A stretch of DNA of 64,000 nt from Bacteriovoracaceae bacterium (lineage in GTDB: Bacteria > Bdellovibrionota > Bacteriovoracia > Bacteriovoracales > Bacteriovoracaceae): the NCBI GenBank assembly GCA_965215445.1, contig CBDCDT010000002.1:1253260-1317259 (forward strand). The letters run 5' to 3'. Shown piece after piece: positions 4,531 to 48,636 of this stretch. The notes under the pieces are model-generated. The model ran no database searches. It saw only the letters and a list, made by a program, of their open reading frames with translations, and was not told where the DNA came from. The stretch's first letter is position 1. Each line of letters opens with the position of its first letter. Both the position numbers and the translations under genes were made by a program.

Positions 4531-4607
4531 TGGCGGGAGCGACGAGACTCGAACTCGCGACCTTCGGCGTGACAGGCCGATGTTGTAACCAACTCAACTA
4601 CGCCCCC
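4531..4607 (-). tRNA. tRNA-Asp (anticodon GUC), CCA encoded
   Basis: The reverse complement reads GGGGGCGTAGTTGAGTTGGTTACAACATCGGCCTGTCACGCCGAAGGTCGCGAGTTCGAGTCTCGTCGCTCCCGCCA. It has a cloverleaf with 7-bp acceptor stem (one G-U), anticodon stem TCGGC/GCCGA, loop CTGTCAC, and a GTTCGAGTC T-loop. Confidence 0.93.
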
Positions 4608-4644
4608 GTAAAAGAAACAATATATTTTTTTATGGGATTTTTCG

Positions 4645-5463
4645 TCAAGGGAGGGTGGGAAAAGAGAGGTAAATGGCCATAAAAATTAGCAGGCCGATGA
4701 GTGTGCGGTGAGCGTGCTTGGGGTTGATGCGCGTGCTTAGTCGCGCTGCGATAAAGGCGCTTGGCCAGCTACTGGCCACTAGCAGCGCTATCACCGCCAG
4801 GTTGAGATGGCCCCATTGGAAGGCCTGGAGGGAGATCGGGAAAGGGGGAAGGGATGGGGCAGGCGTGGCAAGGAGGACGCTCATTCCCGAAAGTGCGCTC
4901 AAGGCCATGGCGGGGTTGCTGTAGACGGATAGCCAGGCCAGCGGCATTTGGTGGAGCAAAATCAAAGTCGGGAGGATGACAAACCCTCCACCGATTCCGG
5001 TAAGTCCCGCAATAAAACCGCCGATGCTTCCCGCCGCCAGGGTGGCCAGAGTTTTGAGGGGAGTGAGGCGAATTAAATGAGGGGCCATTCCAGTTTTCGT
5101 GCTGGAAGTTTTGCTTAAGGCCAGTCTTAAAGCAGAAATTATCAAAGTTGCCGCCAGGATTTGCTTTAATCCTTGAGTGGAAATTTGCAGGGCCAGTCGG
5201 GAACCGAGTTGGGCGCCGGCCACCATGGCAATGCAGAGGGGCAGCAGGACGCGCCAGTTGGGGATGCGCCGGAGTTTCCAAAAGTGCAAAGTGTTGATGA
5301 GACCATTGCAGAAAATGACTCCCAAACAATTGGCGATGATGGTATGAGGATTCATGCTGGGATAGATGGAGTGGAAGACCGAGGCCATGATGGCGCCTCC
5401 GCCGATTCCAAAAAAGGCCGTCATTCCCCCTATCAACATTCCGGTGAGTATGAGGAGTAGCAT
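4645..5463 (-). CDS. TauE/SafE (TSUP) family anion exporter
   Basis: 272-aa polytopic membrane protein. The N-terminus LTGMLIGGMTAFFGIGGGAIM and the internal repeat GFIAGLTGIGGGFVILP are typical of the family. Confidence 0.8.
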   Translation of the reverse strand: MLLLILTGMLIGGMTAFFGIGGGAIMASVFHSIYPSMNPHTIIANCLGVIFCNGLINTLHFWKLRRIPNWRVLLPLCIAMVAGAQLGSRLALQISTQGLKQILAATLIISALRLALSKTSSTKTGMAPHLIRLTPLKTLATLAAGSIGGFIAGLTGIGGGFVILPTLILLHQMPLAWLSVYSNPAMALSALSGMSVLLATPAPSLPPFPISLQAFQWGHLNLAVIALLVASSWPSAFIAARLSTRINPKHAHRTLIGLLIFMAIYLSFPTLP

Positions 5464-25607: not shown

Positions 25608-26906
25608 CTATTTTTTAAGTCTTTGCGAAATCATTTTTATGCCGCGTACGATTTTATTTTTGACTTTGGGGTCAAACAAGTCTGAGTACGCAATTGTTTT
25701 CCAAACTTCGCTTTTGAGTTGTTCTAAAATATGGTCGATAATTTGTGCCCCTCTCTTTTGCGTTATTTGGCAAATTTTGGCGGTTTCAAGAAAATGCTTT
25801 CTCGCTATCTTGTTTGCTCGGTAGTGGTTTGAGTTTCCTACAGACAGGGCCATTTTATATTTGGCCGCAGAAATTTCTTTTATTGTCAGTGCCGGGAAGA
25901 TAGAGAGAATGTCATACAAAGGGGCCAGTTGGTGTCCTGTCTTGGCGTATTCAAGAGAGTAATTTTTGGCGTGTCCATCTATGGCCCCCAGGGCATAATA
26001 GGTCACCAGAGATTTAAAGAGAGTTTCTAAATCTTCTTTTCTTTTCAGGCTGGTTTCCAAGACTGATACAAAATCTTTTATATTTGGGCCTTGGTCGGAT
26101 TGGTATTTTTGGTTTGAGAAATATCCCAGTGCTTGACACATATCTTCCTGGTGTTTGCGGTAGATGATTCCGTCCTCGATGTAGCGATCAAATCTTTCTA
26201 CTGCCAAAACCAATTCTCCATCGAAATTTTTTAAATCGACATTGGCGACGTTAAGGCCCAGTTTCCGACACAATTTCATGCAGAAATATTCATTGTGAAC
26301 ACTGGATTTAAAACTGTATCCACCCATTTTAAAACTGATGGGAGGTTTTATAATATGGGTGGTAGGGGTTATTCCTATTGGCCTTTGCCACTTGTTCTTC
26401 CAAAATAAAAGCGCCGTCTTTTGTTGGACTCCGGCCAGGGAAATTCTAAAGTCTTCCAGGTTTATTTTCATTCCCAAAGGCCATGATTGTAGGTTCCTTA
26501 TCATTTCGCCAATTTCTGAATCAGTAAGCACGGTTCCCTGCGGGGCCTTGCCTTTAAATTCGAGGTTTTTTTCATCAATTCTAGCAAAAAGTAGTGCCCC
26601 CACGCAGTCGCGGCCGATTTTGGCCAAAAGATCAAAGGGCCTTGAACTGTCTGCGGCAAGTTTGGCGGCAATGAGTTCTCTTTCCTCCCTTAAGTCGGGT
26701 AAGAGATTTTCAAACCAGGTGCGGACATTTTCTCCCTTATAAGGAACTGTCCCGAGGGGCAGTATTTGAGAGATGGGAAAACCATTTTGAACCCAAGCGC
26801 GGTTATAGCTAAAGGAAGTTAAACCCTGCGGGCCTTTGGTATATTTTCCCACCAAATCTCCCTGTAAAAAAACGTTTAGTTCTATGGTCTCCGACTTCCT
26901 TCCCAT
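25608..26906 (-). CDS. hipA: HipA-family serine/threonine kinase toxin
   Basis: 432 aa. The N-terminal coupling domain (VFLQGDLVGKY...RDCVGALLF), the catalytic IDGHAKNYSL motif and the LAPLYDILS motif are present. Confidence 0.9.
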   Translation of the reverse strand: MGRKSETIELNVFLQGDLVGKYTKGPQGLTSFSYNRAWVQNGFPISQILPLGTVPYKGENVRTWFENLLPDLREERELIAAKLAADSSRPFDLLAKIGRDCVGALLFARIDEKNLEFKGKAPQGTVLTDSEIGEMIRNLQSWPLGMKINLEDFRISLAGVQQKTALLFWKNKWQRPIGITPTTHIIKPPISFKMGGYSFKSSVHNEYFCMKLCRKLGLNVANVDLKNFDGELVLAVERFDRYIEDGIIYRKHQEDMCQALGYFSNQKYQSDQGPNIKDFVSVLETSLKRKEDLETLFKSLVTYYALGAIDGHAKNYSLEYAKTGHQLAPLYDILSIFPALTIKEISAAKYKMALSVGNSNHYRANKIARKHFLETAKICQITQKRGAQIIDHILEQLKSEVWKTIAYSDLFDPKVKNKIVRGIKMISQRLKK

Positions 26907-35192: not shown

Positions 35193-36005
35193 GTGAAAAT
35201 CTTGACCAATCTCTTGTTCGCTTTTTCCCTGCTCTTTTCCATTTATGCCCGAGGCGATGAGGCCCGTAACGACAGGGCCGCAAAAACTGTAGAAAAGAGA
35301 CTGTTTGGGGTTAATCCGATGGCCCGTTCCGGGAACGACGACGGTGGTCTTTATCTCTCCGTAGACTTTGGTTCCGCACAAGTTGGCGAAGACCCGGTCA
35401 ACGAGTTTGGTGTTTATGGCGGTCAGGGAACCCGTGCAGGTACGATTCCCATCGACAACCAGGGAGTTTTTGGCGACATTGGTGCCAATCTGGGGTTTCA
35501 ACAAGTACTTACAGACGGTATTAGCGTTCGTGTTGAAGGTGGCTATCGCTGGATGCGCTTTGATTTAAACAATCCCACCTATTCTCACATTGAGGTGGCC
35601 CCCGTTCCTCTCGATTTGGTCAACGACTTGATTCAGATTGATGGAGACGTTGAGTTGAGAGGCCCTCGCGGAGGTGTTTTCCTGGATTTGGGGATGGGCA
35701 ATTCGGGAAGTTTTGCCTACGTCGGTTCCAGCTTTGGTCTGGTTAATGTCGCTGGTCAATACAACGCGACAATCGGCCCCGATATTTCCATATCCATGGA
35801 CGATGACACCACGACGACAATGCTGTCTTGGGAAGCGGGAATAGTGGCCCGGCTTGGCAGTCGCGTGGGCGTGCGCTTGGGTTATGAGTGGACTCGCATC
35901 AGTGATTTTGATTGGAGAACCATGACAAATGGCTCTCTTAGTGTCACTCCCGGTGATCGACACATGCTCAAGCTCGGCCTGTTCCACTTTTTCCGCAGAA
36001 GATAA
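35193..36005 (+). CDS. OMP-like beta-barrel protein, novel family, paralog A1
   Basis: GTG start 6 nt after AAGGAGG. Signal peptide KILTNLLFAFSLLFSIYA. Alternating beta-strand pattern with family motifs RVEGGYRWMRFDL, GPRGGVFLDL, FAYVGSSFGLVN, DRH, and C-terminus LFHFFRRR. Confidence 0.75.
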   Translation: MKILTNLLFAFSLLFSIYARGDEARNDRAAKTVEKRLFGVNPMARSGNDDGGLYLSVDFGSAQVGEDPVNEFGVYGGQGTRAGTIPIDNQGVFGDIGANLGFQQVLTDGISVRVEGGYRWMRFDLNNPTYSHIEVAPVPLDLVNDLIQIDGDVELRGPRGGVFLDLGMGNSGSFAYVGSSFGLVNVAGQYNATIGPDISISMDDDTTTTMLSWEAGIVARLGSRVGVRLGYEWTRISDFDWRTMTNGSLSVTPGDRHMLKLGLFHFFRRR

Positions 36006-36035
36006 CGAACTCGAAGACTCATATTTTTAAGTTTT

Positions 36036-36065
36036 ACGGCCACTCTTTGCAGTGGCCGTTTTTTG
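36036..36065 (+). terminator. Rho-independent terminator of A1
   Basis: ACGGCCACT-CTTTGC-AGTGGCCGT followed by TTTTT. Confidence 0.8.
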
Positions 36066-36130
36066 CTTGACGGGTGTGCGTAAAAAAGAGACACTGTTAA
36101 AGTCGTCTGCAATGCACAAGGAGGTTTTTT

Positions 36131-36916
36131 GTGAGAATTTTAACGACTCTTTTTTTTGCCTTTTCTTTCCTTTGTTCCGTTCATGCCGAAAAAGAATCCA
36201 GCAATGCCGAGGCGGTCAAAGTTCTCAAACGCAGGCTTTTTGAATCTAATCCCGACGGTGGCCTTTATATTTCCATCGACTTTGGTGCCAGACAGATGGG
36301 AGAAGGCCCGGTCAACAGCTTTAGCACTGATACCGATGAGGGCGTGCGCGCAGGCACGGTTCCCATCGACAATCGGGGTGTTTTTGGCGACTTAGGAGTC
36401 ACTGTCGGCCATCAGGCGGCGGTATCAAACAGACTCAGTTTTCGCGCCGAAGGTGGCCTGCGCTGGATGCGCTTTGATCTGGACAACCCGGTTTATTCCC
36501 GCGTTGACTTTGCCCCCGTACCCTTGGCATTAATCAACGAAATGGTTCAATTTGAAGGGACTGCCGAGGCCAGGGGAATGCGCATGGGCGCTTTTCTCGA
36601 TCTTCACTACGGCAATTCCGGGAGCTTTGCCTACGTCGGTTCCAGTTATGGCCTGGTCAATATGTCCGCCCAGTACAACCTCTCCGTCGGAGATAGGGGA
36701 AGTGCGCTGGACGACAGTCATTACATCAATCTAAAACCCGGTTTTGAAGCGGGAACAGTCATCCGCTTTGGGCGTACGGGTTTGCGGATAGGCTACGAGC
36801 TGACCCGCTTTGGCCAGGTTGACCTGACAACCAATGGCGGTAGTCCACTCGCTGTCATGCTCGGCAATCGACATATGCTTAAAGTCGGTCTTTTCCACTT
36901 CTTTCGCAAAAGATAG
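36131..36916 (+). CDS. OMP-like beta-barrel protein, paralog A2
   Basis: GTG start after AAGGAGG. Signal peptide RILTTLFFAFSFLCSVHA. Motifs RAEGGLRWMRFDL, FAYVGSSYGLVN, NRH, and C-terminus LFHFFRKR. Confidence 0.75.
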   Translation: MRILTTLFFAFSFLCSVHAEKESSNAEAVKVLKRRLFESNPDGGLYISIDFGARQMGEGPVNSFSTDTDEGVRAGTVPIDNRGVFGDLGVTVGHQAAVSNRLSFRAEGGLRWMRFDLDNPVYSRVDFAPVPLALINEMVQFEGTAEARGMRMGAFLDLHYGNSGSFAYVGSSYGLVNMSAQYNLSVGDRGSALDDSHYINLKPGFEAGTVIRFGRTGLRIGYELTRFGQVDLTTNGGSPLAVMLGNRHMLKVGLFHFFRKR

Positions 36917-36946
36917 TTTTTTAAAATACTCGGTTTTATAAATCTC

Positions 36947-36982
36947 ACGGCCATTCTGCTCAAAGAGTGGCCGTTTTTTTTT
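36947..36982 (+). terminator. Rho-independent terminator of A2
   Basis: ACGGCCATTCT-GCTCAA-AGAGTGGCCGT followed by T9. Confidence 0.8.
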
Positions 36983-37081
36983 GAAATTTTTTTCTTTTTT
37001 GCTTGACGTGAACGCACATGGCAAGGGAAACTATTTAGGCAACCTTGGACGTTGCTATTGCTCACAATTAAGGAGGCCATC

Positions 37082-37903
37082 GTGAGAATTCTGTCTACTA
37101 TCCTGTTCACTTTTTCTCTGCTCTTTTCCGCTCACGCCCGAGATGAAGAACCCAAAAATGCTGAAGCAGTTAAAGCTGTAAAGCGCAACCTGTTTGGAGT
37201 TAACCCCTTGGCAAGAGGCGGCAGCGGCGGCGGTCTTTACGTTTCCGTTGACTTCGGTTCACGACAAATGGGTGAAGACCCGGTCAACAACTTCAGTGCC
37301 GTCGGTGACGATGGTACGCGCGAAGGAACAGTCCCCATCCACAACCGCAGCGCCTTTGCCGACCTTGTAGGTGGCGATATGGCGGCCAGCATGGGTTATC
37401 AAGCGGCAATTTCTGGCGGTGCGAGTTTTCGCGTGGAAGGCGGTTATCGCTATATGCGTTTTGACCTCGACAATCCTTCTTATACCCGCTTTGACTTCGC
37501 TCCCATCTCTCTCGACCAGCTCAACCAATTGGTGGAGTTTTCGGGAACTGCCGAAGCGAGTGGATTTCGCGGAGGTGCTTTCCTCGACCTTCACCTCGGA
37601 GATTCGGGAAGCTTTATTTATGTCGGTTCCACTTATGGCCTTCTCAACGTGGCCGCCCAATACGATTTGGCGATTGGCTCCCAAGGTGCATCGCTGGATG
37701 ACAACAACAACGCAAGCGTGATGACCGGCGAAGTGGGAACAGTGATTCGCTTTGGTGGCCGTACAGGTCTGCGCATTGGCTATGAGCTTACCCGCTTTGG
37801 CCAGGTTGATCTTACCACCACTGACGGCAGCGCTTTGGCGGTTACTCCCGGCAATCGCCACATGGTCAAGATTGGCCTTTTTCACTTCTTCCGCCGAAGA
37901 TAA
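37082..37903 (+). CDS. OMP-like beta-barrel protein, paralog A3
   Basis: GTG at 37082, 6 nt after AAGGAGG (the ORF-track start 37052 is upstream of the SD). Signal peptide RILSTILFTFSLLFSAHA. Motifs RVEGGYRYMRFDL, FIYVGSTYGLLN, NRH, and LFHFFRRR. Confidence 0.75.
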   Translation: MRILSTILFTFSLLFSAHARDEEPKNAEAVKAVKRNLFGVNPLARGGSGGGLYVSVDFGSRQMGEDPVNNFSAVGDDGTREGTVPIHNRSAFADLVGGDMAASMGYQAAISGGASFRVEGGYRYMRFDLDNPSYTRFDFAPISLDQLNQLVEFSGTAEASGFRGGAFLDLHLGDSGSFIYVGSTYGLLNVAAQYDLAIGSQGASLDDNNNASVMTGEVGTVIRFGGRTGLRIGYELTRFGQVDLTTTDGSALAVTPGNRHMVKIGLFHFFRRR

Positions 37904-37936
37904 TCTCTCAAAAAGAGAAGTCGATAAATCTTAAAA

Positions 37937-37968
37937 ATGGCCGCTGCTTGCAGTGGCCGTTTTTTTTT
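37937..37968 (+). terminator. Rho-independent terminator of A3
   Basis: ATGGCCGCTG-CTTG-CAGTGGCCGT followed by T9. It lies inside the 5' end of the ORF-track call for the deaminase, so the deaminase start was moved to 37985. Confidence 0.8.
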
Positions 37969-37984
37969 GCTAATACCCACATTG

Positions 37985-38497
37985 ATGAATAAAACGCCCT
38001 CCACTCCCCGAACTCCTCCCGGTTGGGACGAATATTTTATGCTTCAGGCATTGATCGTCTCGCTCAGGAGCAAAGACCCCAGCACTCAGGTCGGTGCGGT
38101 CTTTGTCGATGCCGACAACCGCCAAATCGGGATGGGCTACAACGGCTTCGTGGCGGGAATCGACGAATCCCAGTTGCCCTGGGGAAAGGGGCAAGATGCC
38201 AAGCTGGAAGAGACGAAATACGCCTACGTCGTTCACGCCGAGGCCAATGCCATTTTACAGGCCAGGCACTCCCTGAAAGATTCTCGTTGCTATGTGACCC
38301 TTTTTCCCTGCAACGAGTGCGCCAAACTCATCGCCACCGCCAAAATCAGTGAAGTCATCTACCTTTCCGACGGCCGGGACGAGGCGAACGCCCGCATCAC
38401 CAAAAAAATTCTCTCCCTCTCGGGGGTTAAATGCCGCCAATTCTCCCTCTCGACCCATCTGATTTCAGAGGTTTGTGAGCGCCTGAAAAATCTATGA
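37985..38497 (+). CDS. dCMP deaminase (ComEB-type cytidine/deoxycytidylate deaminase)
   Basis: WDEYFM..A...S.RSKDPSTQVGAV, the zinc motifs HAEANAI and PCNECAKLI. The present C-terminus (LKNL) is encoded by cassette DNA (see findings). Confidence 0.88.
   Translation: MNKTPSTPRTPPGWDEYFMLQALIVSLRSKDPSTQVGAVFVDADNRQIGMGYNGFVAGIDESQLPWGKGQDAKLEETKYAYVVHAEANAILQARHSLKDSRCYVTLFPCNECAKLIATAKISEVIYLSDGRDEANARITKKILSLSGVKCRQFSLSTHLISEVCERLKNL
38467..38484 (+). repeat. Left copy of the 18-bp direct repeat flanking the hicAB cassette
   Basis: AGAGGTTTGTGAGCGCCT, identical to 39140-39157. Confidence 0.9.
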
Positions 38498-38673
38498 AAA
38501 AAAGAGATTTGGAGCATTATCTCAAAAGTTTAGGTTGGGTACTGGAAAGAGAAGGTTCTCGGCATGAGGTGTGGAGTAAGGGCAGAGGAAAAATTGCCGT
38601 TCCAAGGCATCGAGAAATCAGAGAGGGAACGGCCAAGAAAATTATGAAACAGGCAAAAGGCCATTTCTGTTGA
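38494..38673 (+). CDS. hicA: HicA-family mRNA interferase toxin (59 aa, below the ORF-track cutoff)
   Basis: MKKRDLEHYLKSLGWVLEREGSRHEVWSKGRGKIAVPRHREIREGTAKKIMKQAKGHFC shows the YcfA/HicA pattern (L...G.....GS.H......-.VPrH.ei..GT...I.kQA). Its ATG overlaps the deaminase TGA (ATGA). Confidence 0.85.
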   Translation: MKKRDLEHYLKSLGWVLEREGSRHEVWSKGRGKIAVPRHREIREGTAKKIMKQAKGHFC

Positions 38674-38698
38674 CATTCTATAAATTCTTTTGTATACT
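38670..38698 (+). promoter_or_regulatory. Sigma70-type promoter internal to the hicAB cassette
   Basis: TTGACA (38670-38675, overlapping the hicA stop), a 17-nt spacer, then TATACT (38693-38698). Confidence 0.6.
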
Positions 38699-38722
38699 AA
38701 TAAGTATATTTCGGAGGTGGCC

Positions 38723-39139
38723 ATGAAAATACAAGGCAGGTTGGTCAAAGAGAAGGGAGAAAAGTGTTGGGGAGTCGAGATTCCTGCAATAGGGGTTTAC
38801 ACTCAAGGAAAGACAAAAAAAGATGCGTATGACATGGCCAAAGACGCAATAGAAATTTTGGTGAATAAAGACGATTTTAAGGTAGAGATTGAACCTGGAC
38901 GCAATTCAGATTTCTTCATTATTCCCAGTAAAATAGGCCCTATTTTATCCCTCATTTTAAAACAAAAAAGAATTGACAGGGGGCTGACCATTGAAAAAGT
39001 CGTCGAAAACCTTGGCCAGACTTCTCAAAATGCTTACTGGCGTTATGAATCTGGGGCGAGTTCTCCAAGTTTTGAAAAATTTGACCAAATTCTAAAGGCG
39101 ATCAACCCGAAATCTTCGGCGGTTTTAATCATCTCATAG
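38723..39139 (+). CDS. hicB: HicB-family antitoxin with a C-terminal XRE-type HTH
   Basis: GGAGG lies 7 nt upstream of the ATG. The N-terminal HicB fold pattern is (W)GVEIPAIGVYTQGKTKKDAYDMAKDAIE, and the C-terminal HTH is LKQKRIDRGLTIEKVVENLGQTSQNAYWRYESG. Confidence 0.85.
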   Translation: MKIQGRLVKEKGEKCWGVEIPAIGVYTQGKTKKDAYDMAKDAIEILVNKDDFKVEIEPGRNSDFFIIPSKIGPILSLILKQKRIDRGLTIEKVVENLGQTSQNAYWRYESGASSPSFEKFDQILKAINPKSSAVLIIS

Positions 39140-39157
39140 AGAGGTTTGTGAGCGCCT
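39140..39157 (+). repeat. Right copy of the 18-bp direct repeat, followed by the orphaned original deaminase 3' end
   Basis: AGAGGTTTGTGAGCGCCT starts at the base after the hicB stop. In the deaminase frame it reads on to ...EVCERLQGI-TGA (39168-39170). Confidence 0.9.
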
Positions 39158-39222
39158 TCAGGGCATTTGACACAAACTCGCCTTTCAGGGTAGAAGTTTG
39201 ACTCTAAAGGTCAGTGAATAAT

Positions 39223-40056
39223 ATGAAATTCTTTTTTGCTCTTTTTCTCATTCTGCTTTTCCATCCACTCTTTGCCCAATCTGCTGGGCCACCAGAGGGA
39301 ATCTACTTTTCGGCCGATCTTCGCGCGGGCCTTACGGGTGGGGCAAGGGGTGACTCTCAGGGCGGTTTGTTTCTGGTTGGAAAAACGAGTTCTGGTTTGA
39401 GGCAAGATGTGGGAATTGTGGGTTCGGTGTTTGGCCTCTACAGGAGATTCGTTGGGGACAACTTGCCTGTTACGCTAGACCCGGGCGACCTGGATTTTCA
39501 TGTTGGTTTCAAAAAATTTTTTTCAAGTCCTGCTGCAAAACAACGGGTGGGAATGCGCTTTGAGGGCGGCCTTAAATGGATGCGTACCGAATTGGGCACT
39601 CCCGTTCCTTTTCTTTCCAGGGAGCAACTGTCTTCCACCTCTTTTTCAGAATTTTTGCAGCAGTTTGAAATTAAAATAGAGGGTGAAGCGCACATTTTTG
39701 GTCCTCGTGGGGGAATGTTCCTCGATTTGCGTTTGTATGAAACAGACCATTTTGTCTATTTGGGCACTTCCTTTGGGCTGGTGAATTTAGGGCTTGAATA
39801 CGATGTTCACTCCGACCGCCTTCCCCTCACTGCCTCAACCGATGATTCGGCCTGGATTTCCATGTTCCAATACGATGCGGGGCTGGGCATACAACTAAGA
39901 GAGCGCTTAGGCCTAAAATTGGGCTACCAATTTGCAACATTCCAGGACGCTTTGATGGCCACACCTTTTGCCGGCACAATTGAAGCATCTCCCAATAATC
40001 GGCACACCCTAAGAATCAGTTTTGTGCATTGGTTCCGCAGAAAGCAGGCCATTTGA
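39223..40056 (+). CDS. OMP-like beta-barrel protein, paralog B1 (divergent subfamily)
   Basis: Signal peptide MKFFFALFLILLFHPLFAQ. Motifs RFEGGLKWMRTEL, GPRGGMFLDL, FVYLGTSFGLVN, NRH, and C-terminus VHWFRRKQAI. Confidence 0.7.
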   Translation: MKFFFALFLILLFHPLFAQSAGPPEGIYFSADLRAGLTGGARGDSQGGLFLVGKTSSGLRQDVGIVGSVFGLYRRFVGDNLPVTLDPGDLDFHVGFKKFFSSPAAKQRVGMRFEGGLKWMRTELGTPVPFLSREQLSSTSFSEFLQQFEIKIEGEAHIFGPRGGMFLDLRLYETDHFVYLGTSFGLVNLGLEYDVHSDRLPLTASTDDSAWISMFQYDAGLGIQLRERLGLKLGYQFATFQDALMATPFAGTIEASPNNRHTLRISFVHWFRRKQAI

Positions 40057-40118
40057 CAAAGGCCCGGGCCTCGGGGTAAAAAATGATCTCCCTATCCACC
40101 AAAACAAAAGGAAATGGT

Positions 40119-40961
40119 ATGAAATTCTCTTATTTCGTCCTGATGGCCCTGCTTTTCGCTCCAGTTTTTGCCCAGTCCAACGAACCGCCGGAGGGATTTT
40201 ACTTCTCGATGGGTTTCCACACTCCACCCATGAGTGGCAAATCCAACCCCGATTCCGAGGGGCGCGTTTTTCTCGTCGGAGAGATCAGTCCTTTGGCGGC
40301 CACGGAATTTGGAGTGGCCAATTCAAAGTTCGGCCTCTCTGAAACTCGCGAAGGGGGAAATGCTCCCATCGCCATGAACTTGAACGATCTGGATTTCAAT
40401 ATCGGTTTTAAAAGGCTTTCTTCCAAAGTGGGTTTGAATGACCGGCGCATAGGGCTTCGTATTGAGGGCGGCGTTAAGTGGTTGCGCACCAACTTGGGGA
40501 TTCCAACACCCATTGGGGAGGGCCTAGAAGTGGCCCCCATGTTTATCGAAGAACTCTTCGAGGAACTCGAGATTAAAATGAATGGAAGGGCCAGTATGCT
40601 CGGCGTTCGTGGAGGGGTTTTTGTCGATTGGCATCTGACCAACTCCGATCACTTTGTCTACTTGGGAACTTCTCTGGGGTTGGTAAATTTGGGATTGGAG
40701 TACACGATACATGCTCCCGACCCCTTGTTGTCTGCTTTTAGCACGGAAGATTCGGGACTAACTTCTATGCTCCAGTATGATGCCGGAATGGGTTTTCAAC
40801 TGGGTAAACGCTTAGGCCTGAAGGTGGGTTATGAATTTTCAAAATTTAAGGGAGCCGGCCTGGTGACGCCTTTTAGTCTCGCTTTGGGCAAAGTTGATGT
40901 AACTCCCACCAACCGGCACACCGTAAAAATCAGTCTTTTACACTGGTTCCGCAGGCGGTAA
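40119..40961 (+). CDS. OMP-like beta-barrel protein, paralog B2
   Basis: Signal peptide MKFSYFVLMALLFAPVFAQ. Motifs RIEGGVKWLRTNL, GVRGGVFVDW, FVYLGTSLGLVN, NRH, and C-terminus LHWFRRR. Confidence 0.7.
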   Translation: MKFSYFVLMALLFAPVFAQSNEPPEGFYFSMGFHTPPMSGKSNPDSEGRVFLVGEISPLAATEFGVANSKFGLSETREGGNAPIAMNLNDLDFNIGFKRLSSKVGLNDRRIGLRIEGGVKWLRTNLGIPTPIGEGLEVAPMFIEELFEELEIKMNGRASMLGVRGGVFVDWHLTNSDHFVYLGTSLGLVNLGLEYTIHAPDPLLSAFSTEDSGLTSMLQYDAGMGFQLGKRLGLKVGYEFSKFKGAGLVTPFSLALGKVDVTPTNRHTVKISLLHWFRRR

Positions 40962-41040
40962 GTTTATCCATTTAAAAAGGCCTAACTTCAGCGCTTAAGG
41001 CCAATCCTCCAACATCCGATAGGGTAACAAGGAGGGCAAA

Positions 41041-41790
41041 ATGAAGTTGAGTCTTTTACAAAACACGTCTTTGGGTTTGTTGACCACAGTTTGCGTTTTG
41101 GCCTGTGATTCTCCTTCTTCTACGCGGAGTAGGGGGGGACGAGGTATCGACCAGAACAACCCGGCCTACGGCGGTGGAACCTTTTCCAATTATAATTCGG
41201 ATTCCCACTACTATTTAAAAAATGCCGGGCAGAGTGGAGACGACCCCTATTTAGACCCCAATCTTTCTCAAGTTCCCGATGAGATTTCCCATTGTTCGTG
41301 GTCGAGGGACGGTTCTAGCGGATATACTTTTTCCAGTGGACATTTTTCTCGTGGGGAAATCGACTCCGTCGAAAAAAATGTCAATTTATGCCAGCACCGG
41401 GGAGAAGAACTCAAAATCTATTTGCAACTCAAACACCCATTTAGAGAGGGAGTGTGTTTATTGCCTACTTTTCACAACGAACAAGACGGCAAACAGGTGA
41501 GCATTGGCAATTTCCGTTGCCAACGCATGACTTCTGACAATACCAAGGCCCAGCTTTATGAGTTGGTCAAAGATCGGGTGGGAATGACCCAATTTCCCGT
41601 CACCGGCGTGATGCTGATGAAAGACAAGCAATACGTCTACCCGCCACCTTATCCGACCCACCCCATTTCCAGTTTGGCGGCCTATGGCCACTGTATTAAG
41701 GAACTGGCGCAAAAGCGCAATCCCAGCTTTTGCATTGCTTTTAAGAACGCCGGGCACTACCTCTACCATCAGTTTCCACAATCACAGTGA
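41041..41790 (+). CDS. Hypothetical lipoprotein
   Basis: Lipobox LTTVCVLAC, 249 aa, several Cys. No known motif. Confidence 0.6.
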   Translation: MKLSLLQNTSLGLLTTVCVLACDSPSSTRSRGGRGIDQNNPAYGGGTFSNYNSDSHYYLKNAGQSGDDPYLDPNLSQVPDEISHCSWSRDGSSGYTFSSGHFSRGEIDSVEKNVNLCQHRGEELKIYLQLKHPFREGVCLLPTFHNEQDGKQVSIGNFRCQRMTSDNTKAQLYELVKDRVGMTQFPVTGVMLMKDKQYVYPPPYPTHPISSLAAYGHCIKELAQKRNPSFCIAFKNAGHYLYHQFPQSQ

Positions 41791-42762
41791 GAGAGAGAGT
41801 CCGCCGTAAAGAGAATTGCCGTAGCTTCCTTGAAAATTCCACAACCTGGCGGCAATGAGATTTTTATCTCTCAGGCGGCCAGAGCGAAAAGATGCCCCCA
41901 ATTCCATTTTAAGAGAGGGGTGCAGGGAAAAGATATTCAGTTGAAGTTTGGGACTCAATACTGAAAACTTAACTTTCTTCTTTAGCGCCAAAGACGGGGC
42001 AGAAATGCCCGTCTCTGGGTTAAGGGAATAGTGAAAGGCATTGATTAGCAGTCTGGAGCCAGGCCCGAGTTGCAGACCTAAACTGGCAGAGGCCCTGGAA
42101 AGGTTGCCTATCCGCATTTCGTCTGGTTGAACAGAAGTTCCAGTCAAATGCATTTCGTAACCAAGACCTAGGGCCATTTTGGAAAAGCGCTTGGCGGTGG
42201 AAAGTCCCAAAATGTGGTCTGTCCTGCCGCTGGCGAGATATGATTTTTTGGACTTCCACCTAAAACCGCCGTAGAGGTCGAGGTTGACCTGCCCTTGGAG
42301 CGGGCCTAACTGCAACCAGTGAAACCCCACCAGTAACAGGGGATTTCCCGCCTGCCAACCGCCCCTGGGGGCCAACACCGGCGAAGACGATTGGGCCTGC
42401 CAGTAGCGGCCTTCAAAAAAGAACTGGCCGGCAATCTGGCCTTGGGCCGCAAAGCGCATAAAGCGTACCTCTGGCCCTCGTAAGTCCTGCAAGTCCACGC
42501 CCACCGTCTCAAAGCTCGCGCCCAGATTGAAGTGCTTCTGTGTCCCTGAAGTTTTGGAAACTGTTTTATTGCTGACAATGCGCGGGCGAATTTTGACTTG
42601 GGGAGGTGGCGCTTGGGGTGGTTTTGGTCGGGGAGAAACCACCCTCGCCCCCGAACTTTGCGGGCGAATATTTTCGGGAACGCTGTAATCCACCAAGGCC
42701 TGCGCCTGGCCGGTTAAACCCCATGCCAAACCTAAAACCGCCAATTTCTCGCATACCTTCAT
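41782..42762 (-). CDS. Hypothetical outer-membrane-like protein with a Pro-rich linker
   Basis: The start at ATG 42762 overlaps the sixA stop (ATGA). Signal peptide MKVCEKLAVLGLAWGLTGQAQA, a PRPKPPQAPPPQ linker, then an alternating beta pattern. Confidence 0.55.
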   Translation of the reverse strand: MKVCEKLAVLGLAWGLTGQAQALVDYSVPENIRPQSSGARVVSPRPKPPQAPPPQVKIRPRIVSNKTVSKTSGTQKHFNLGASFETVGVDLQDLRGPEVRFMRFAAQGQIAGQFFFEGRYWQAQSSSPVLAPRGGWQAGNPLLLVGFHWLQLGPLQGQVNLDLYGGFRWKSKKSYLASGRTDHILGLSTAKRFSKMALGLGYEMHLTGTSVQPDEMRIGNLSRASASLGLQLGPGSRLLINAFHYSLNPETGISAPSLALKKKVKFSVLSPKLQLNIFSLHPSLKMELGASFRSGRLRDKNLIAARLWNFQGSYGNSLYGGLSLSL

Positions 42763-43184
42763 GGCCAACTCCTGTTTATCAACGTCCAATTTTGTGCTTT
42801 TTTCTCTAAGATCACTGCCTGAGCGGTGGGGAAATCCATCCATTGGTCAATCAGTGTTTTGGCCATAATCGGCATGTAGGGCATGTGTCCCACCAGCATG
42901 AGGTTTTCACGCCAATCATTTAAACGTTCATGCCAGTGGGAAACCGGACTTTCCGGCCTTAAATCTTCGCTGATTTCCAAAGGGATGTCGGTGAAGGACT
43001 CTTGCAAAAGGCGCGCTGTCTGTTCCGCTCGCAAAAGGTCTGAGTGAAAAATTCTCTCGGGAAGAAAACCTTTTTGGTTTAAATATTCGGCCAAGGCCCG
43101 CACTTCTTCCTCGCCCCGTTCGGAAAGCGAGCGCTTTCCCTCTCGGTGGGGTGCATGGCCGTGCCTGACTAAAATCAGCTTCAT
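42759..43184 (-). CDS. sixA: Phosphohistidine phosphatase SixA
   Basis: MKLILVRHGHA...SERGEEE...LVGHMPY is the histidine-phosphatase RHG motif, and the size matches SixA. Confidence 0.8.
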   Translation of the reverse strand: MKLILVRHGHAPHREGKRSLSERGEEEVRALAEYLNQKGFLPERIFHSDLLRAEQTARLLQESFTDIPLEISEDLRPESPVSHWHERLNDWRENLMLVGHMPYMPIMAKTLIDQWMDFPTAQAVILEKKAQNWTLINRSWP

Positions 43185-43270
43185 GGCCTTATTATAGCGC
43201 TTGGTCAAAGTTGCGTGAAGTGTCAATAACTGATTTGGAAAAATACGCTCCGGCGTGTTAGCTTTCCCAA

Positions 43271-43708
43271 ATGAGCTTGAACCAGAGAAAGGCCCAAATT
43301 GTGAGCGACTTCCAAACGCTTTCGAGCTGGGAAGAGCGTTACCAAAGGATCATTGAAATGGGAAAGAATCTCCCTCCCATGCCCGAAGCTCAAAAAATCG
43401 AGGCCAATAAAGTTAAGGGCTGCCAAAGCCAATTGTGGTTGTCTGCCGAAACCCACGAGGGAAAAGTTTATTTTCACGCCGACAGTGATGCCTCCATTTC
43501 CAAGGGAATTGTGGCCCTGTTGATAGCACTTTATAGCGATGCCACCCCCGGAGATATTTTAGGCCTGGGCCAGGACTTCGTCGATGAAATGGAATTGCGC
43601 CAGCATCTTTCCATGAGTCGCGCCAACGGATTGGCCAGCGTACTCAAACAAATTCAATTTTACGCCCTGGCCTTTCAGGCCAAACAAGGAAATGTGCCGT
43701 GTCCCTAA
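43271..43708 (+). CDS. sufE: SufE-family cysteine desulfuration protein
   Basis: WEERYQRIIEMGK..., VKGCQSQLWL, and DSDASISKGIVALL are the SufE/CsdE signature. Confidence 0.85.
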   Translation: MSLNQRKAQIVSDFQTLSSWEERYQRIIEMGKNLPPMPEAQKIEANKVKGCQSQLWLSAETHEGKVYFHADSDASISKGIVALLIALYSDATPGDILGLGQDFVDEMELRQHLSMSRANGLASVLKQIQFYALAFQAKQGNVPCP

Positions 43709-44691
43709 TCCAGCGCCCGCGCAGAAACCGCAAGTGCGAAAACATCCGCCGCCTGACTCAGGAATCCCGCTTGAGTTGTCACGACCTGGTGGCCCCCCTC
43801 TTTGTTATCGGTGGGGAAGACCAGCGCGAGACTATAACCTCCATGCCGGGCCAATACCGCTTGGGCCTTAAACCCCTTCTCAAGGAAGTGGAAGAACTGC
43901 AAGAACTGGGCATTCCCGGAGTGGCGTTGTTTCCCGTCATCCCGGACGCTCTCAAAACTCCCGATGCGGTTTGTGCTTTCGACCCCGAAGGCCTCTATCC
44001 CCAGGCCATCCGCGCTCTCAAAAAAACTTTCCCAGATATGTTGTTGGTCACCGATGTGGCCCTCGACCCCTATTCCAGCGACGGCCACGACGGACTTCTC
44101 GACCGAGAGAGCGGGGAGATTTTAAACGACGAAACTCTCACTCTTCTCTCTCAAATGGCGGTTTTACAGGCCCGGGCGGGAAGCGATGTCATCGGCGCCA
44201 GCGATATGATGGACGGCCGTGTGGCGGCCATCCGCAAGGCCCTCGACAGCGAAGGTTACATTCAAACTTCGATTATGAGTTATACCGCCAAATATGCCTC
44301 GGCCTTTTATTCTCCCTTCCGGGACGCCCTCGCCAGTGCCCCACGCTCGGGGGACAAAAAAACCTATCAAATGAATCCCGCCAACGTGCGCGAGGCAGTG
44401 CTTGAAACCAAACTTGACCAATCCGAGGGCGCGGATATGGTGATGGTCAAGCCGGCGCTTTGCTACCTCGATGTCATCCGGGCGATCAGGGAAAGCACTA
44501 CGCTGCCTGTCGCTGCCTATAATGTCAGTGGAGAGTACGCCATGGTCAAGGCCGCCGCCGAAAATGGTCTGCTCGACGAAGACTTGGCCATCTCCGAAAT
44601 TCTGACGGGTATGAAGCGCGCCGGTTGCGATGTCATTTTCACCTATTTTGCCAAAAAGGCGGCACACCTCTTAAAGGCAAGGCCCTTCTAA
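43699..44691 (+). CDS. hemB: Porphobilinogen synthase (delta-aminolevulinate dehydratase)
   Basis: RPRRNRK..., ...DVALDPYSSDGHDG, MVKPAL.YLD, and AYNVSGEYAM. GTG start. Confidence 0.95.
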   Translation: MSLIQRPRRNRKCENIRRLTQESRLSCHDLVAPLFVIGGEDQRETITSMPGQYRLGLKPLLKEVEELQELGIPGVALFPVIPDALKTPDAVCAFDPEGLYPQAIRALKKTFPDMLLVTDVALDPYSSDGHDGLLDRESGEILNDETLTLLSQMAVLQARAGSDVIGASDMMDGRVAAIRKALDSEGYIQTSIMSYTAKYASAFYSPFRDALASAPRSGDKKTYQMNPANVREAVLETKLDQSEGADMVMVKPALCYLDVIRAIRESTTLPVAAYNVSGEYAMVKAAAENGLLDEDLAISEILTGMKRAGCDVIFTYFAKKAAHLLKARPF

Positions 44692-47297: not shown

Positions 47298-47339
47298 GGC
47301 CGTTTTCGACCAAATTCGCATCTTATCGTAAAATGGTCG
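47298..47339 (+). repeat. Direct repeat copy 1 (with internal CGACCA..TGGTCG inverted repeat)
   Basis: GGCCGTTTTCGACCAAATTCGCATCTTATCGTAAAATGGTCG. The 32-nt core at 47308-47339 is identical to 47393-47424. Confidence 0.85.
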
Positions 47340-47380: not shown

Positions 47381-47424
47381 GGCCCTCGTTTTGACCAAAT
47401 TCGCATCTTATCGTAAAATGGTCG
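47381..47424 (+). repeat. Direct repeat copy 2, ending 3 nt before the ATPase start codon
   Basis: GGCCCTCGTTTTGACCAAATTCGCATCTTATCGTAAAATGGTCG. The period relative to copy 1 is 85 bp. Confidence 0.85.
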
Positions 47425-47427
47425 CGT

Positions 47428-48636
47428 ATGCACAAAAGGAATCTGACAGTCTCTATTAAGTCTTTGGCCCTGGCGAGGGGAAAAATGGCCTTTATTTCCG
47501 GCCCCCGGCAAGTGGGAAAAACCACTTTGGCGAAGATACTTTTGAAACCTTCAAAAGGCCTTTACGGGAACTGGGACGATTTGGACTTTCGCCGGCGTTG
47601 GGCCAAATCCCCCAAGAGCATTGTGTGGCCACTGCCGGAAAACTCGCGCCTCATCCTCGATGAAATTCACAAAGCGCCCCGCTGGAAACAAAACCTGAAG
47701 GGCCTCTACGATACTCTGGAAAAAAAACTGGGCATCATCGTCACCGGAAGTGCCAGACTCGACCTTTACAAAAAGGGTTCCGACAGCCTTATGGGCCGTT
47801 ACTTGGGGTTTCGGCTACATCCCTTTTCGATTGGGGAAATTATCGGCACAAAACCGCTTTCCCCCGTAAAAGTGGAGCAGCTTTTGAGGGAGGGATTGTC
47901 CCTGTCTTCGTCCAAAGATTATTGGAATGACCTCAAGGCCTACGGCGGTTTTCCCGAACCTCTCTGGGGTGGCTCCCAAAAAATCCTGCGCCTCTGGCAA
48001 AAGGGCCGTATTGATAAAATCGTACGGGAAGACATCCGAGACTTGGGGAGAATACCCGAAATGGGCAAAATGGAAATGTTGATCTCCCTTCTTCCCGAAA
48101 GAGTTGCTTCCCCCCTGTCTCTTAAATCTCTGGGGGAAGATTTGGAGGTCAGTTACGACACCGCCAAGAGGTGGACGGATTATCTCAAAACTCTGTACTA
48201 TTTTTTTGAAGTACGGCCTTGGTCTAAGCGCATTGCCAGGTCTTTAAAAAAAGAAAAGAAAATTTATCTGTGGGATTGGTCGGAAGTTACAGACCCAGGG
48301 GCCAGGTTTGAAAATATGGTTGCCTCTCACCTTCTCAAGGCGTGCCATTTCTGGACGGATACGGGGGAGGGAAAATTTGAACTCTTCTACTTGAAAACCA
48401 AGGATAAGAGAGAAGTCGATTTTTTAGTCATCAAGGACGGAAATCCATGGTTGCCAATTGAGTGCAAATTAAAAGATACGTCCCCAACTTCTCACTTGCA
48501 GGCCTTCACTTCTGCGCTCAAAGTTCCGGTTTGTTTGCAACTTGTGGAGAAAGACAAGGTTTTGAAAAAAAGGCGTGACTCCGAATACGTCACCTACATT
48601 TGTAGTGCTTCTTCTTTTTTGCGCCATCTTCCCTAA
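47428..48636 (+). CDS. AAA_14 / DUF4143-family ATPase
   Basis: Walker A GPRQVGKTTL, Walker B LILDEIHK, and the C-terminal E(V)DFL..........IE(C)K pattern typical of the DUF4143 (restriction-endonuclease-like) tail. Confidence 0.85.
   Translation: MHKRNLTVSIKSLALARGKMAFISGPRQVGKTTLAKILLKPSKGLYGNWDDLDFRRRWAKSPKSIVWPLPENSRLILDEIHKAPRWKQNLKGLYDTLEKKLGIIVTGSARLDLYKKGSDSLMGRYLGFRLHPFSIGEIIGTKPLSPVKVEQLLREGLSLSSSKDYWNDLKAYGGFPEPLWGGSQKILRLWQKGRIDKIVREDIRDLGRIPEMGKMEMLISLLPERVASPLSLKSLGEDLEVSYDTAKRWTDYLKTLYYFFEVRPWSKRIARSLKKEKKIYLWDWSEVTDPGARFENMVASHLLKACHFWTDTGEGKFELFYLKTKDKREVDFLVIKDGNPWLPIECKLKDTSPTSHLQAFTSALKVPVCLQLVEKDKVLKKRRDSEYVTYICSASSFLRHLP

Follow-up and report, generated by a model that had tools for sequence, protein, structure and literature searches.

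A hicAB toxin–antitoxin pair in the last codons of a deaminase gene lies between 18-bp copies of its target

Introduction

Restriction–modification units can enter a chromosome with a long duplication of the target that varies in length (Nobusato 2000, Gene 259:99; Furuta, Abe & Kobayashi 2010, PMC2853133). These insertions carry no mobility genes and their repeats often span stop or start codons (PMC2853133; PMC3874152); a target duplication is operationally called long when it exceeds 30 bp (PMC2853133). Here we describe a locus in a 64-kb stretch of the genome of a Bacteriovoracaceae bacterium (contig CBDCDT010000002.1; hereafter the window), at which a hicAB toxin–antitoxin (TA) pair occupies the 3' end of a deoxycytidine monophosphate (dCMP) deaminase gene between two copies of an 18-bp direct repeat. 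To our knowledge, no one has yet explained how insertion with long target duplication, described in 2000 and 2010 for restriction–modification units, comes about.

In the HicAB family, HicA is a ribosome-independent mRNA-cleaving toxin that HicB neutralises, and Makarova et al. 2006 reportedly spoke of a 'HicAB cassette'. Conserved gene ends are also targets of integrases, as icd is for phage 21 and fda for ICESt1. TA pairs are known as recombinase-dependent units in the form of integron cassettes, Acinetobacter pdif modules (XerC/D) and Tn3-family res-linked pairs, and the routes by which TA pairs are acquired into chromosomes are poorly characterised (PMC13617665).

Results and discussion

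An 18-bp direct repeat brackets hicAB at the deaminase 3' end

The 18-mer AGAGGTTTGTGAGCGCCT occurs exactly twice in the window, once within the last codons of the deaminase gene and once starting on the base after the hicB stop (Table 1). No third copy was found in the window even when three mismatches were allowed, and two or more matches were obtained in 0 of 100 shuffles, indicating that the repeat is statistically non-random. It is exactly 18 bp long because the bases beside the two copies differ (C versus G before, G versus T after), and beyond the 18 bp the flanks of the two copies are dissimilar. The DNA between them (38485–39139, 655 bp) contains only hicA, a TTGACA-17-TATACT promoter and hicB, with 9 non-coding nt ahead of hicA and 0 nt past hicB, whose TAG stop (39137–39139) directly abuts the second copy. 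The first-pass annotation of the window had placed such a repeat around hicAB at the deaminase 3' end, and its coordinates, the 655-bp insert, the ATGA overlap of start and stop codons and the abutting TAG were all confirmed.

The insert is compositionally foreign to its neighbours. It is AT-richer, as had also been claimed, with a GC content of about 0.39–0.43 versus 0.50–0.56 in the flanks; at third codon positions the GC content is 0.38 in hicA and 0.40 in hicB, and 0.67 in the deaminase gene and 0.60 in ruvB. No terminal inverted repeats were found at its ends. An independent European Nucleotide Archive assembly (L003) is 99% identical over the locus, with both repeat copies and the same junctions; since this assembly has the same structure independently, the structure is not an assembly artefact.

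Relatives hold the original gene end at an empty site

The deaminase frame leaves the first repeat copy into GAAAAATCTATGA (K N L stop), so the final 13 nt of the present gene (38485–38497, codons K N L stop) are insert DNA. The insertion point lies 13 nt before the original gene end, and the full-length frame is retained with three tail residues swapped from QGI to KNL. We attach no significance to the equal length of the two tails, as a 9-nt leader has about a 1 in 3 chance of ending in ATGA. When the second copy is read in the deaminase frame, it continues to a TGA at 39168–39170, which had been described as the orphaned end of the gene.

Related loci were few: only five in the databases searched, with only four close relatives of the deaminase in protein databases. 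When the deaminase protein was compared with genome contigs, the matches listed were all distant relatives (at most 63% identity), with neither the window genome nor its sister among them, and gave nothing informative on the site. The closest genome with an empty site is a sister genome, GCA_965243145.1 (L004), whose deaminase is 74% identical to that of the window. In L004 an outer-membrane protein (OMP) gene directly follows the deaminase gene, which ends in CTTCAGGGCCTTTAA (LQGL*; ...QHLQGL-stop); the window orphan, CTTCAGGGCATTTGA (LQGI*), matches this empty site in 12 of 15 nt. The deaminase of L001, a locus without hicAB, ends in ...CQRLKGI*, and a third related locus, L002, contains a fossil gene end, CTTCAGGGCATTTGA, identical to the window orphan. 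Because the L004, L001 and L002 ends match, the second repeat copy with the 13 nt that follow it is the displaced original gene end, which bears out the earlier view of the orphan.

The repeat is present as two copies in the window and L003 and as a single gene end in L004 and L001. Judged by their alignment with the window, the relatives' contigs settle the polarity of the insertion, and a single hicAB insertion event appears in them, common to the window, L003 and L002, the last of which retains the junction TAAAAATCTAT. We also considered LKNL as a donor's native deaminase end (the family consensus is HLKxLL), and rejected it since no deaminase–hicAB adjacency without an orphan was found.

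The neighbours of the locus are core genes in the same order as in L004, with ruvCAB upstream and His_Phos, sufE and ALAD downstream, and the deaminase gene adjoins ruvCAB in relatives too. Neither the insert nor the open reading frames (ORFs) tested at 25.6–52.9 kb matched integrase or transposase families, in agreement with the first-pass annotation, which had seen no recombinase nearby.

Capture with target duplication as the proposed origin

We propose, as a reasonably probable account, that a horizontally acquired hicAB module was captured without a recombinase, with an 18-nt duplication of its target, and then spread by homologous recombination. The foreign hicAB DNA, whose source was probably a plasmid or conjugative element, would have been joined illegitimately to two breaks or joints lying 18 nt apart. 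Survival would have been limited to harmless products, in which the host gene and the neighbour's promoter were intact. Through homologous recombination in the conserved flanks, the inserted allele would later have persisted or spread among strains; it is already eroding, with hicA deleted in one strain. The deaminase frame and the probable OMP promoter are both preserved because the 18-bp target is duplicated. With moderate confidence, we infer that no integrase or transposase encoded in the insert was responsible and that the insertion falls into the class of recombinase-free insertions with variable target duplication. Spread among strains needs no special mobility. The earlier picture of a TA module moving as a discrete cassette therefore stands in part: insertion with target duplication is supported, and mobility as a cassette is not, as one event is visible and descent with homologous recombination suffices.

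Among the described systems, the variable target duplication of restriction–modification units is the best match for the hicAB insertion. Like those insertions, this one consists of a foreign addiction-type unit without transposase, integrase or inverted repeats; the direct repeats are single at a relative's empty site, the target gene is intact and the repeat lengths vary by event. Unlike them, the cargo is a type II TA pair, the hicAB repeat is 18 bp and thus under 30 bp (the neighbouring event in L002 has 147 nt), and several events cluster at one locus. The hicAB insertion hence belongs to known kinds, namely the HicAB family and insertion with target duplication, and is not a new kind of system.

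The compact pair also resembles the recombinase-dependent TA units in size (about 0.6–1 kb) and in being present or absent between strains. Unlike them, it has no attC hairpin, no dif-like 11-6-11 site, no res site and no inverted repeats, and its flanking repeat is native coding sequence of the target rather than element-borne. We ruled out an integron cassette, for which there is no room for attC (0 nt after hicB) and no end palindrome, and a transposon or miniature inverted-repeat transposable element (MITE), as no insert has terminal inverted repeats and the duplication lengths vary. A Xer/dif-type module was ruled out on inspection, AGAGGTTTGTGAGCGCCT not being an 11-6-11 palindrome, as was a tRNA-targeted island: the sole tRNA gene (Asp) lies at 4531–4607, and Rfam detected nothing else.

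The locus is a very clean example of TA acquisition, with base-level junctions, an empty site in a sister genome, a gene-end fossil and later loss of the toxin. It illustrates what appears to be a harmless insertion, in which the length of the host gene and the neighbour's promoter-like module are kept and the toxin would be tied translationally to a housekeeping gene.

Other cargo has entered at or near the deaminase end

A conserved module, CAGGGCATTTGACA-N17-GGTAGAA, stands upstream of the OMP gene that follows the insert, and its TTGACA (39166–39171) overlaps the orphan stop codon. A paralogue of this module, CAGGCCATTTGACA-N17-GGTAAAA, precedes the second downstream OMP gene (40046–40082) and is also found in L001 and L002. 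In general form, CAG(G/C)(G/C)CATTTGAC(A/G)-N17-GGTA(A/G)AA precedes each downstream OMP gene and overlaps the preceding stop (QGI*, QAI*). The module at 39160–39194 received no promoter call in the consensus scan; it is probably the OMP promoter region.

Comparison of related strains shows the site to be a hotspot, with other, unrelated cargo at or near the deaminase end. The first-pass annotation had noticed neither this nor the overlap of the orphan tail with the promoter-like module. Sister strains have four or more additional insertions with flanking duplications inside about 6 kb; the hotspot is small and unusually busy. The duplications bracketing the different cargo are unequal, measuring about 8–14, 18 or 147 nt. 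In L001 (1348–3142), a 1.8-kb insert of 35% GC directly follows the deaminase stop and carries two minus-strand genes (368 and 179 aa), neither with a Pfam or PADLOC match. It is bracketed by ..ATTTGACA (..CATTTGACA) repeats, identical over 8 nt and in 11 of 14 positions over CAGGGCATTTGACA, of which the right copy is nearer the ancestral sequence than the left.

The L002 locus is more complex. It has hicB without hicA, as hicA and the -35 box have been deleted between TAT microhomologies (L002:6500–6540 versus window 38494–38695); its deaminase now ends in LKNLY, and a decayed orphan follows hicB. Together with a second homologue, L086, L002 is an example of TA erosion in which the toxin is lost while the antitoxin is kept. 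Beyond it (L002:6984–9132) lies a subtilase-like island of 195 and 327 aa (apparently split), which also encodes a 149-aa protein containing internal repeats, each about 106 nt long; a weak subtilase match was all that Pfam and PADLOC returned for the cargo of L002 and L001. The island is flanked by a 147-nt duplication of 77–78% identity, which extends from 53 nt inside the deaminase gene through the intergenic module into the OMP signal-peptide codons, and because the duplication covers both, the island inherits the OMP promoter region and signal peptide. L002 has three gene-end copies separating two cargo blocks.

Two more inserts, with two extra genes (minus strand, 254 aa; plus strand, 150 aa), occupy L002:9920–11400 between the pair of OMP genes that comes next, and are bracketed by three copies of the CATTTGAC(A/G)-N17-GGTAAAA module. 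The left junction of the first comes right after CATTTGACA, at the same relative position as in L001. This arrangement suggests repeated insertion with duplication of the promoter-like module, and the L002 events allow more than one account of their number and order. Neither terminal inverted repeats nor a recognisable recombinase turned up in the inserts of L001 or L002. The L001 repeat (CAGGGCATTTGACA) adjoins the 18-mer and overlaps it little or not at all, and the 147-nt repeat of L002 spans both.

Repeated use of one site by different cargo would also be expected if AGAGGTTTGTGAGCGCCT were an integrase attachment (att) core at the deaminase 3' end and hicAB an element moved by a recombinase encoded elsewhere, in the manner of a cis-mobilizable element (CIME). 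The recombinase could be of the tyrosine or serine type, for example on a conjugative element; excision would be possible, and elements accumulating at a single att site would account for the tandem structure of L002. Integrases classically target the final codons of conserved genes, with a substitute tail of equal length, and 18 bp is within the size range of att cores. The same combination of last-codon insertion, gene-end repeat and substitute tail is seen in the CIMEs at fda of Streptococcus thermophilus and in phage 21 and e14 at icd, and the L002 elements, like tandem CIMEs, are parted by gene-end copies: three of them separate two cargo blocks. Moreover, a hicAB relative is found on a contig bearing type IV secretion system (T4SS) genes, and the L002 pattern of a native-type left copy with a window-type right copy would follow if the crossover fell close to the 3' end of a core carried by the cassette.

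However, unlike the CIME and icd elements, no integrase was found in any insert or in the syntenic neighbourhood. The duplications differ in extent, and AGAGGTTTGTGAGCGCCT and the L001 repeat (..CAGGGCATTTGACA) adjoin with no evident or demonstrable common core. With 0 nt after the hicB stop and 9 nt before hicA, there are no non-coding arms and no room for arm-type sites, and the flanks are without similarity beyond the 18 bp. We consider an att core rather unlikely, yet a serious rival.

Several points nevertheless weigh against the recombinase-free capture that we favour. With five related loci, few sequences underlie both the polarity and the count of independent events, and sequence alone cannot tell illegitimate capture from the action of a site-specific recombinase supplied in trans. 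At the 3' end of a conserved gene, a repeat of 18 bp also resembles an integrase att core, and it is shorter than the 30-bp criterion for a 'long target duplication'. In L002, the repeat copy ahead of hicB has the native CQ form (TGCCAG) and the one behind it is nearer the CE form of the window (TGTTAG versus TGTGAG); capture would need extra recombination steps to give these copy types, and a cassette-borne repeat is the simpler fit.

A more speculative reading of the hotspot, which we regard as improbable, is that the deaminase tail and the CATTTGACA modules are integrase-free docking sequences, so that cargo between duplicates of them loops out as circles and re-enters by short homology. 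The cargo would comprise hicAB, the L001 pair and the three L002 inserts, with re-entry in other strains at the same or paralogous modules. If docking were true, it would amount to recombinase-independent cassette exchange and make the TA pair an autonomous mobile unit of about 670 bp. The clustered insertions form a compact natural series in which break repair, short-homology recombination and an unseen recombinase could be weighed against one another as the source of such events.

Relatives of the cassette and its spread among strains

HicB has only 14 relatives in the databases, and tblastn found no match in PLSDB plasmids or INPHARED phages. The sister genome carries, at an unrelated locus (L085), a hicAB pair with 72% DNA identity to the window cassette, the homology running from the hicA start codon to 11 nt before the hicB stop. 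A 10-nt repeat around this pair (L085, 4440 and 5440) was judged to be due to chance, leaving no meaningful flanking repeat. Another homologue is on a 37.6-kb contig with T4SS genes (L087), and a further one lies beside DDE transposases, where hicA is reduced to a 49-nt remnant ahead of hicB (L086:4870–4918). Related hicAB genes (HicB 71% identical) form a 1-kb module in four ParA/IS66/defence contexts within one sample (L088–L091). These contexts show the hicAB family to be mobile and often on mobile elements, with a recurring unit of essentially two genes. The first-pass annotation had suggested looking for the same cassette at other sites with similar repeats; a 72%-identical hicAB does exist elsewhere, and AGAGGTTTGTGAGCGCCT was not found beside the hicAB homologues at other sites. 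A scan of metagenome contigs with GYGCCTTCAGGGCATTTGACA gave one chance match, inside an unrelated 1857-aa ORF (L092), and no further relatives.

In L088 the module is flanked by inverted palindromic units of about 57–70 nt (L088:3341–3397 and 4605–4674; also in L089–L091). These units may be a MITE-like or repetitive extragenic palindrome (REP)-like mobilisation route, unlike that in the window.

The homologues on plasmid-like and T4SS contigs are also what one would expect if the insert were the remnant of a larger element, whether a plasmid, integrative and conjugative element or prophage, with the addictive hicAB module as sole survivor. When mobile elements decay, TA modules are typically what survives longest (PMC13617665). 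In that case, however, the insert ends being gene ends, the deletions must have stopped exactly at both repeats, and the homology of the sister hicAB likewise extends only from the hicA start to 11 nt before the hicB stop. Given the tight insert ends we deemed a large-element remnant highly improbable.

Divergence between the window and L003 is patchy over 36253–44494, where tracts of low divergence stand against a 2–4% background. Such tracts lie at 37169–37771, at 38453–39195, which includes the cassette and has 1 difference in 743 bp, and at 41316–41794; they contain difference-free runs of 285–533 bp, and the block upstream of 36850 is more than 30% divergent. This mosaic seems to indicate frequent homologous recombination in the population. 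As other low-divergence tracts exist, near-identity of the cassette is not decisive and was rejected as proof of cassette-only transfer.

The same near-identity, set against about 2–4% divergence in most flanks, could be read as the mark of an integrase-free circle. Recombination between the two repeats would release a molecule of 673 bp (hicAB with one repeat), which would re-enter deaminase tails in any genome by short-homology, Campbell-type recombination, so that the cassette could move repeatedly; its expected joint is hicB TAG-AGAGGTTTGTGAGCGCCT-GAAAAATCTATG (hicB stop, 18-mer, GAAAAATCT), and at the emptied site the deaminase gene would be contiguous with ...GAGCGCCTTCAGGGCATTTGA. The same junctions are indeed present in lineages about 12% apart in the deaminase (window and L002), and the native-type left copy and nearer-window-type right copy of L002 also fit. 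Ordinary mosaic recombination, on the other hand, explains the near-identity, as shown by the other low-divergence tracts of 480–600 bp. RecA-mediated exchange usually requires a minimum homology of more than 18 bp, which the repeat does not reach, and AGAGGTTTGTGAGCGCCT is missing beside hicAB homologues elsewhere. We hold such a circle to be quite improbable.

HicAB proteins and their predicted regulation

The HicA match to PF07927 spans profile positions 2–56 of 58, and in an alignment with the HicA-like protein 1WHZ the His of its GSRH motif pairs with that of KGGH. In characterised HicA proteins, the conserved His after the Gly-rich turn is the catalytic His. For HicB, the HTH_3 profile was matched (E 1.9e-6), and the sequence profile PF15919 HicB_lk stayed below its cut-off (E 0.0021, 18.6 bits, cut-off 27). 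The HicB sequences 6G1C and 6G1N of the PDB match it at E 0.13–0.33 only. The AlphaFold model of HicB (predicted local distance difference test score 89) has E. coli HicB as its top Foldseek match over the full length (6HPB_B, E 2.9e-5, probability 1.0, 141 columns), with HicB3 6U0I as the other top full-length match. Judged on this model, the window HicB is a member of a divergent subfamily, whose membership rests on fold and context. By analogy with the family, the toxin HicA of the window would cleave mRNA, and HicB would act both as the antitoxin that neutralises it and as a repressor.

The hicA ATG (38494–38496) overlaps the deaminase TGA (38495–38497) as ATGA, an arrangement that suggests translational coupling of the two genes. 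There is no promoter or Shine–Dalgarno sequence of hicA's own, only the 9-nt leader, and hicA is probably transcribed together with the deaminase gene. The promoter inside the insert had been noted before and was recovered at the same place; its -35 and -10 boxes are conserved in L003, L085 and L087. The palindrome over the -10 box is identical in the L087 homologue, and in L085 it reads TACACTAATAAGTGAA, with changes in both arms. It is probably through this palindrome that HicB represses its own promoter. The hicB gene also has a Shine–Dalgarno sequence, GGAGG (38713–38717), which together with its own promoter would favour an excess of antitoxin.

These features agree with those of HicAB systems such as E. 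coli HicAB (PDB 6HPB): the toxin gene comes first, HicA is small and resembles a double-stranded-RNA-binding domain with a conserved His, HicB combines its N-terminal domain with a helix-turn-helix (HTH) domain, and a second promoter for hicB and a palindromic operator are predicted here. The patchy, horizontal distribution, including plasmids, is likewise shared. Unlike those systems, hicA is without a promoter of its own and is ATGA-joined to a host housekeeping gene, and the HicB subfamily is small, with none of its members in PLSDB or INPHARED.

Table 1 Features of the hicAB locus, in window coordinates
Feature	Position	Strand	Basis or remark
dCMP deaminase gene (ComEB/dCMP_cyt_deam_1 type), present form	37985–38497	+	Pfam PF00383, E 6.9e-23
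Direct repeat copy 1, AGAGGTTTGTGAGCGCCT	38467–38484	+	Coding sequence native to the deaminase gene (..S E V C E R L); aligns with deaminase 3' ends of L001, L002 and L004
Leader brought by the insert, 9 nt, GAAAAATCT	38485–38493	+	Read from the sequence; supplies the new deaminase tail
hicA, 59-aa HicA-family toxin gene	38494–38673	+	Pfam PF07927 HicA_toxin, E 3e-13, 50.1 bits versus cut-off 27
Sigma-70-like promoter TTGACA-17-TATACT for hicB	38670–38698	+	11/12 consensus positions; begins within the last hicA codons
Palindrome TATACTAATAAGTATA over the -10 box, putative HicB (HTH) operator	38693–38708	+	Read from the sequence
hicB, 138-aa antitoxin gene, N-terminal HicB fold and C-terminal Xre-type HTH	38723–39139	+	Pfam, AlphaFold, Foldseek
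Direct repeat copy 2	39140–39157	+	Immediately follows the hicB stop
Orphaned original deaminase tail, TCAGGGCATTTGA	39158–39170	+	Continues copy 2 to give ...E V C E R L Q G I stop
Conserved module CAGGGCATTTGACA-N17-GGTAGAA ahead of the first downstream OMP gene	39160–39194	+	Paralogous module, L001, L002
First downstream OMP paralogue (beta-barrel family)	39226–40056	+	Intact; directly after the deaminase gene in the empty-site genome

The host gene, the OMP array and other features of the window

The longest ORF of the deaminase (186 aa) opens at an ATG at 37937, inside the terminator hairpin of the upstream OMP gene (37933–37964). The relatives P0122 and P0002 start at MSE/MNT, equivalent to the ATG at 37985, and are 170–171 aa long. 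By this comparison the likely start is 37985 (MNKTPS...) rather than 37937, and the 186-aa form in databases is probably an over-extended gene call. Matches of the deaminase to NCBIfam ComEB and to deaminase-domain profiles were under the cut-off.

OMP beta-barrel paralogues stand in tandem on both sides of the deaminase gene, three upstream and two downstream (35193–37903 and 39226–40961), with one of each in L004. The upstream OMP genes each end in a near-identical terminator (GGCC..GGCCGTTTTTT), at 36038, 36966 and 37939. The upstream and downstream subfamilies are about 32% identical. The proposal that the cassette splits the OMP array did not hold, because in L004 the deaminase gene already lies between one OMP gene of each subfamily.

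Two further features of the window are of note. A HipA-family kinase toxin gene (25608–26906, minus strand; HipA_C E 4.5e-48, Couple_hipA E 3.3e-22) lies 12 kb upstream and adds a second TA-type gene to the window. Two 36-nt direct repeats (47304–47339 and 47389–47424), 97% identical and 85 nt apart, closely precede an AAA_14/DUF4143 ATPase gene (47428–48636); each has an internal GACCA...TGGTC dyad, and they may be duplicated operator sites.

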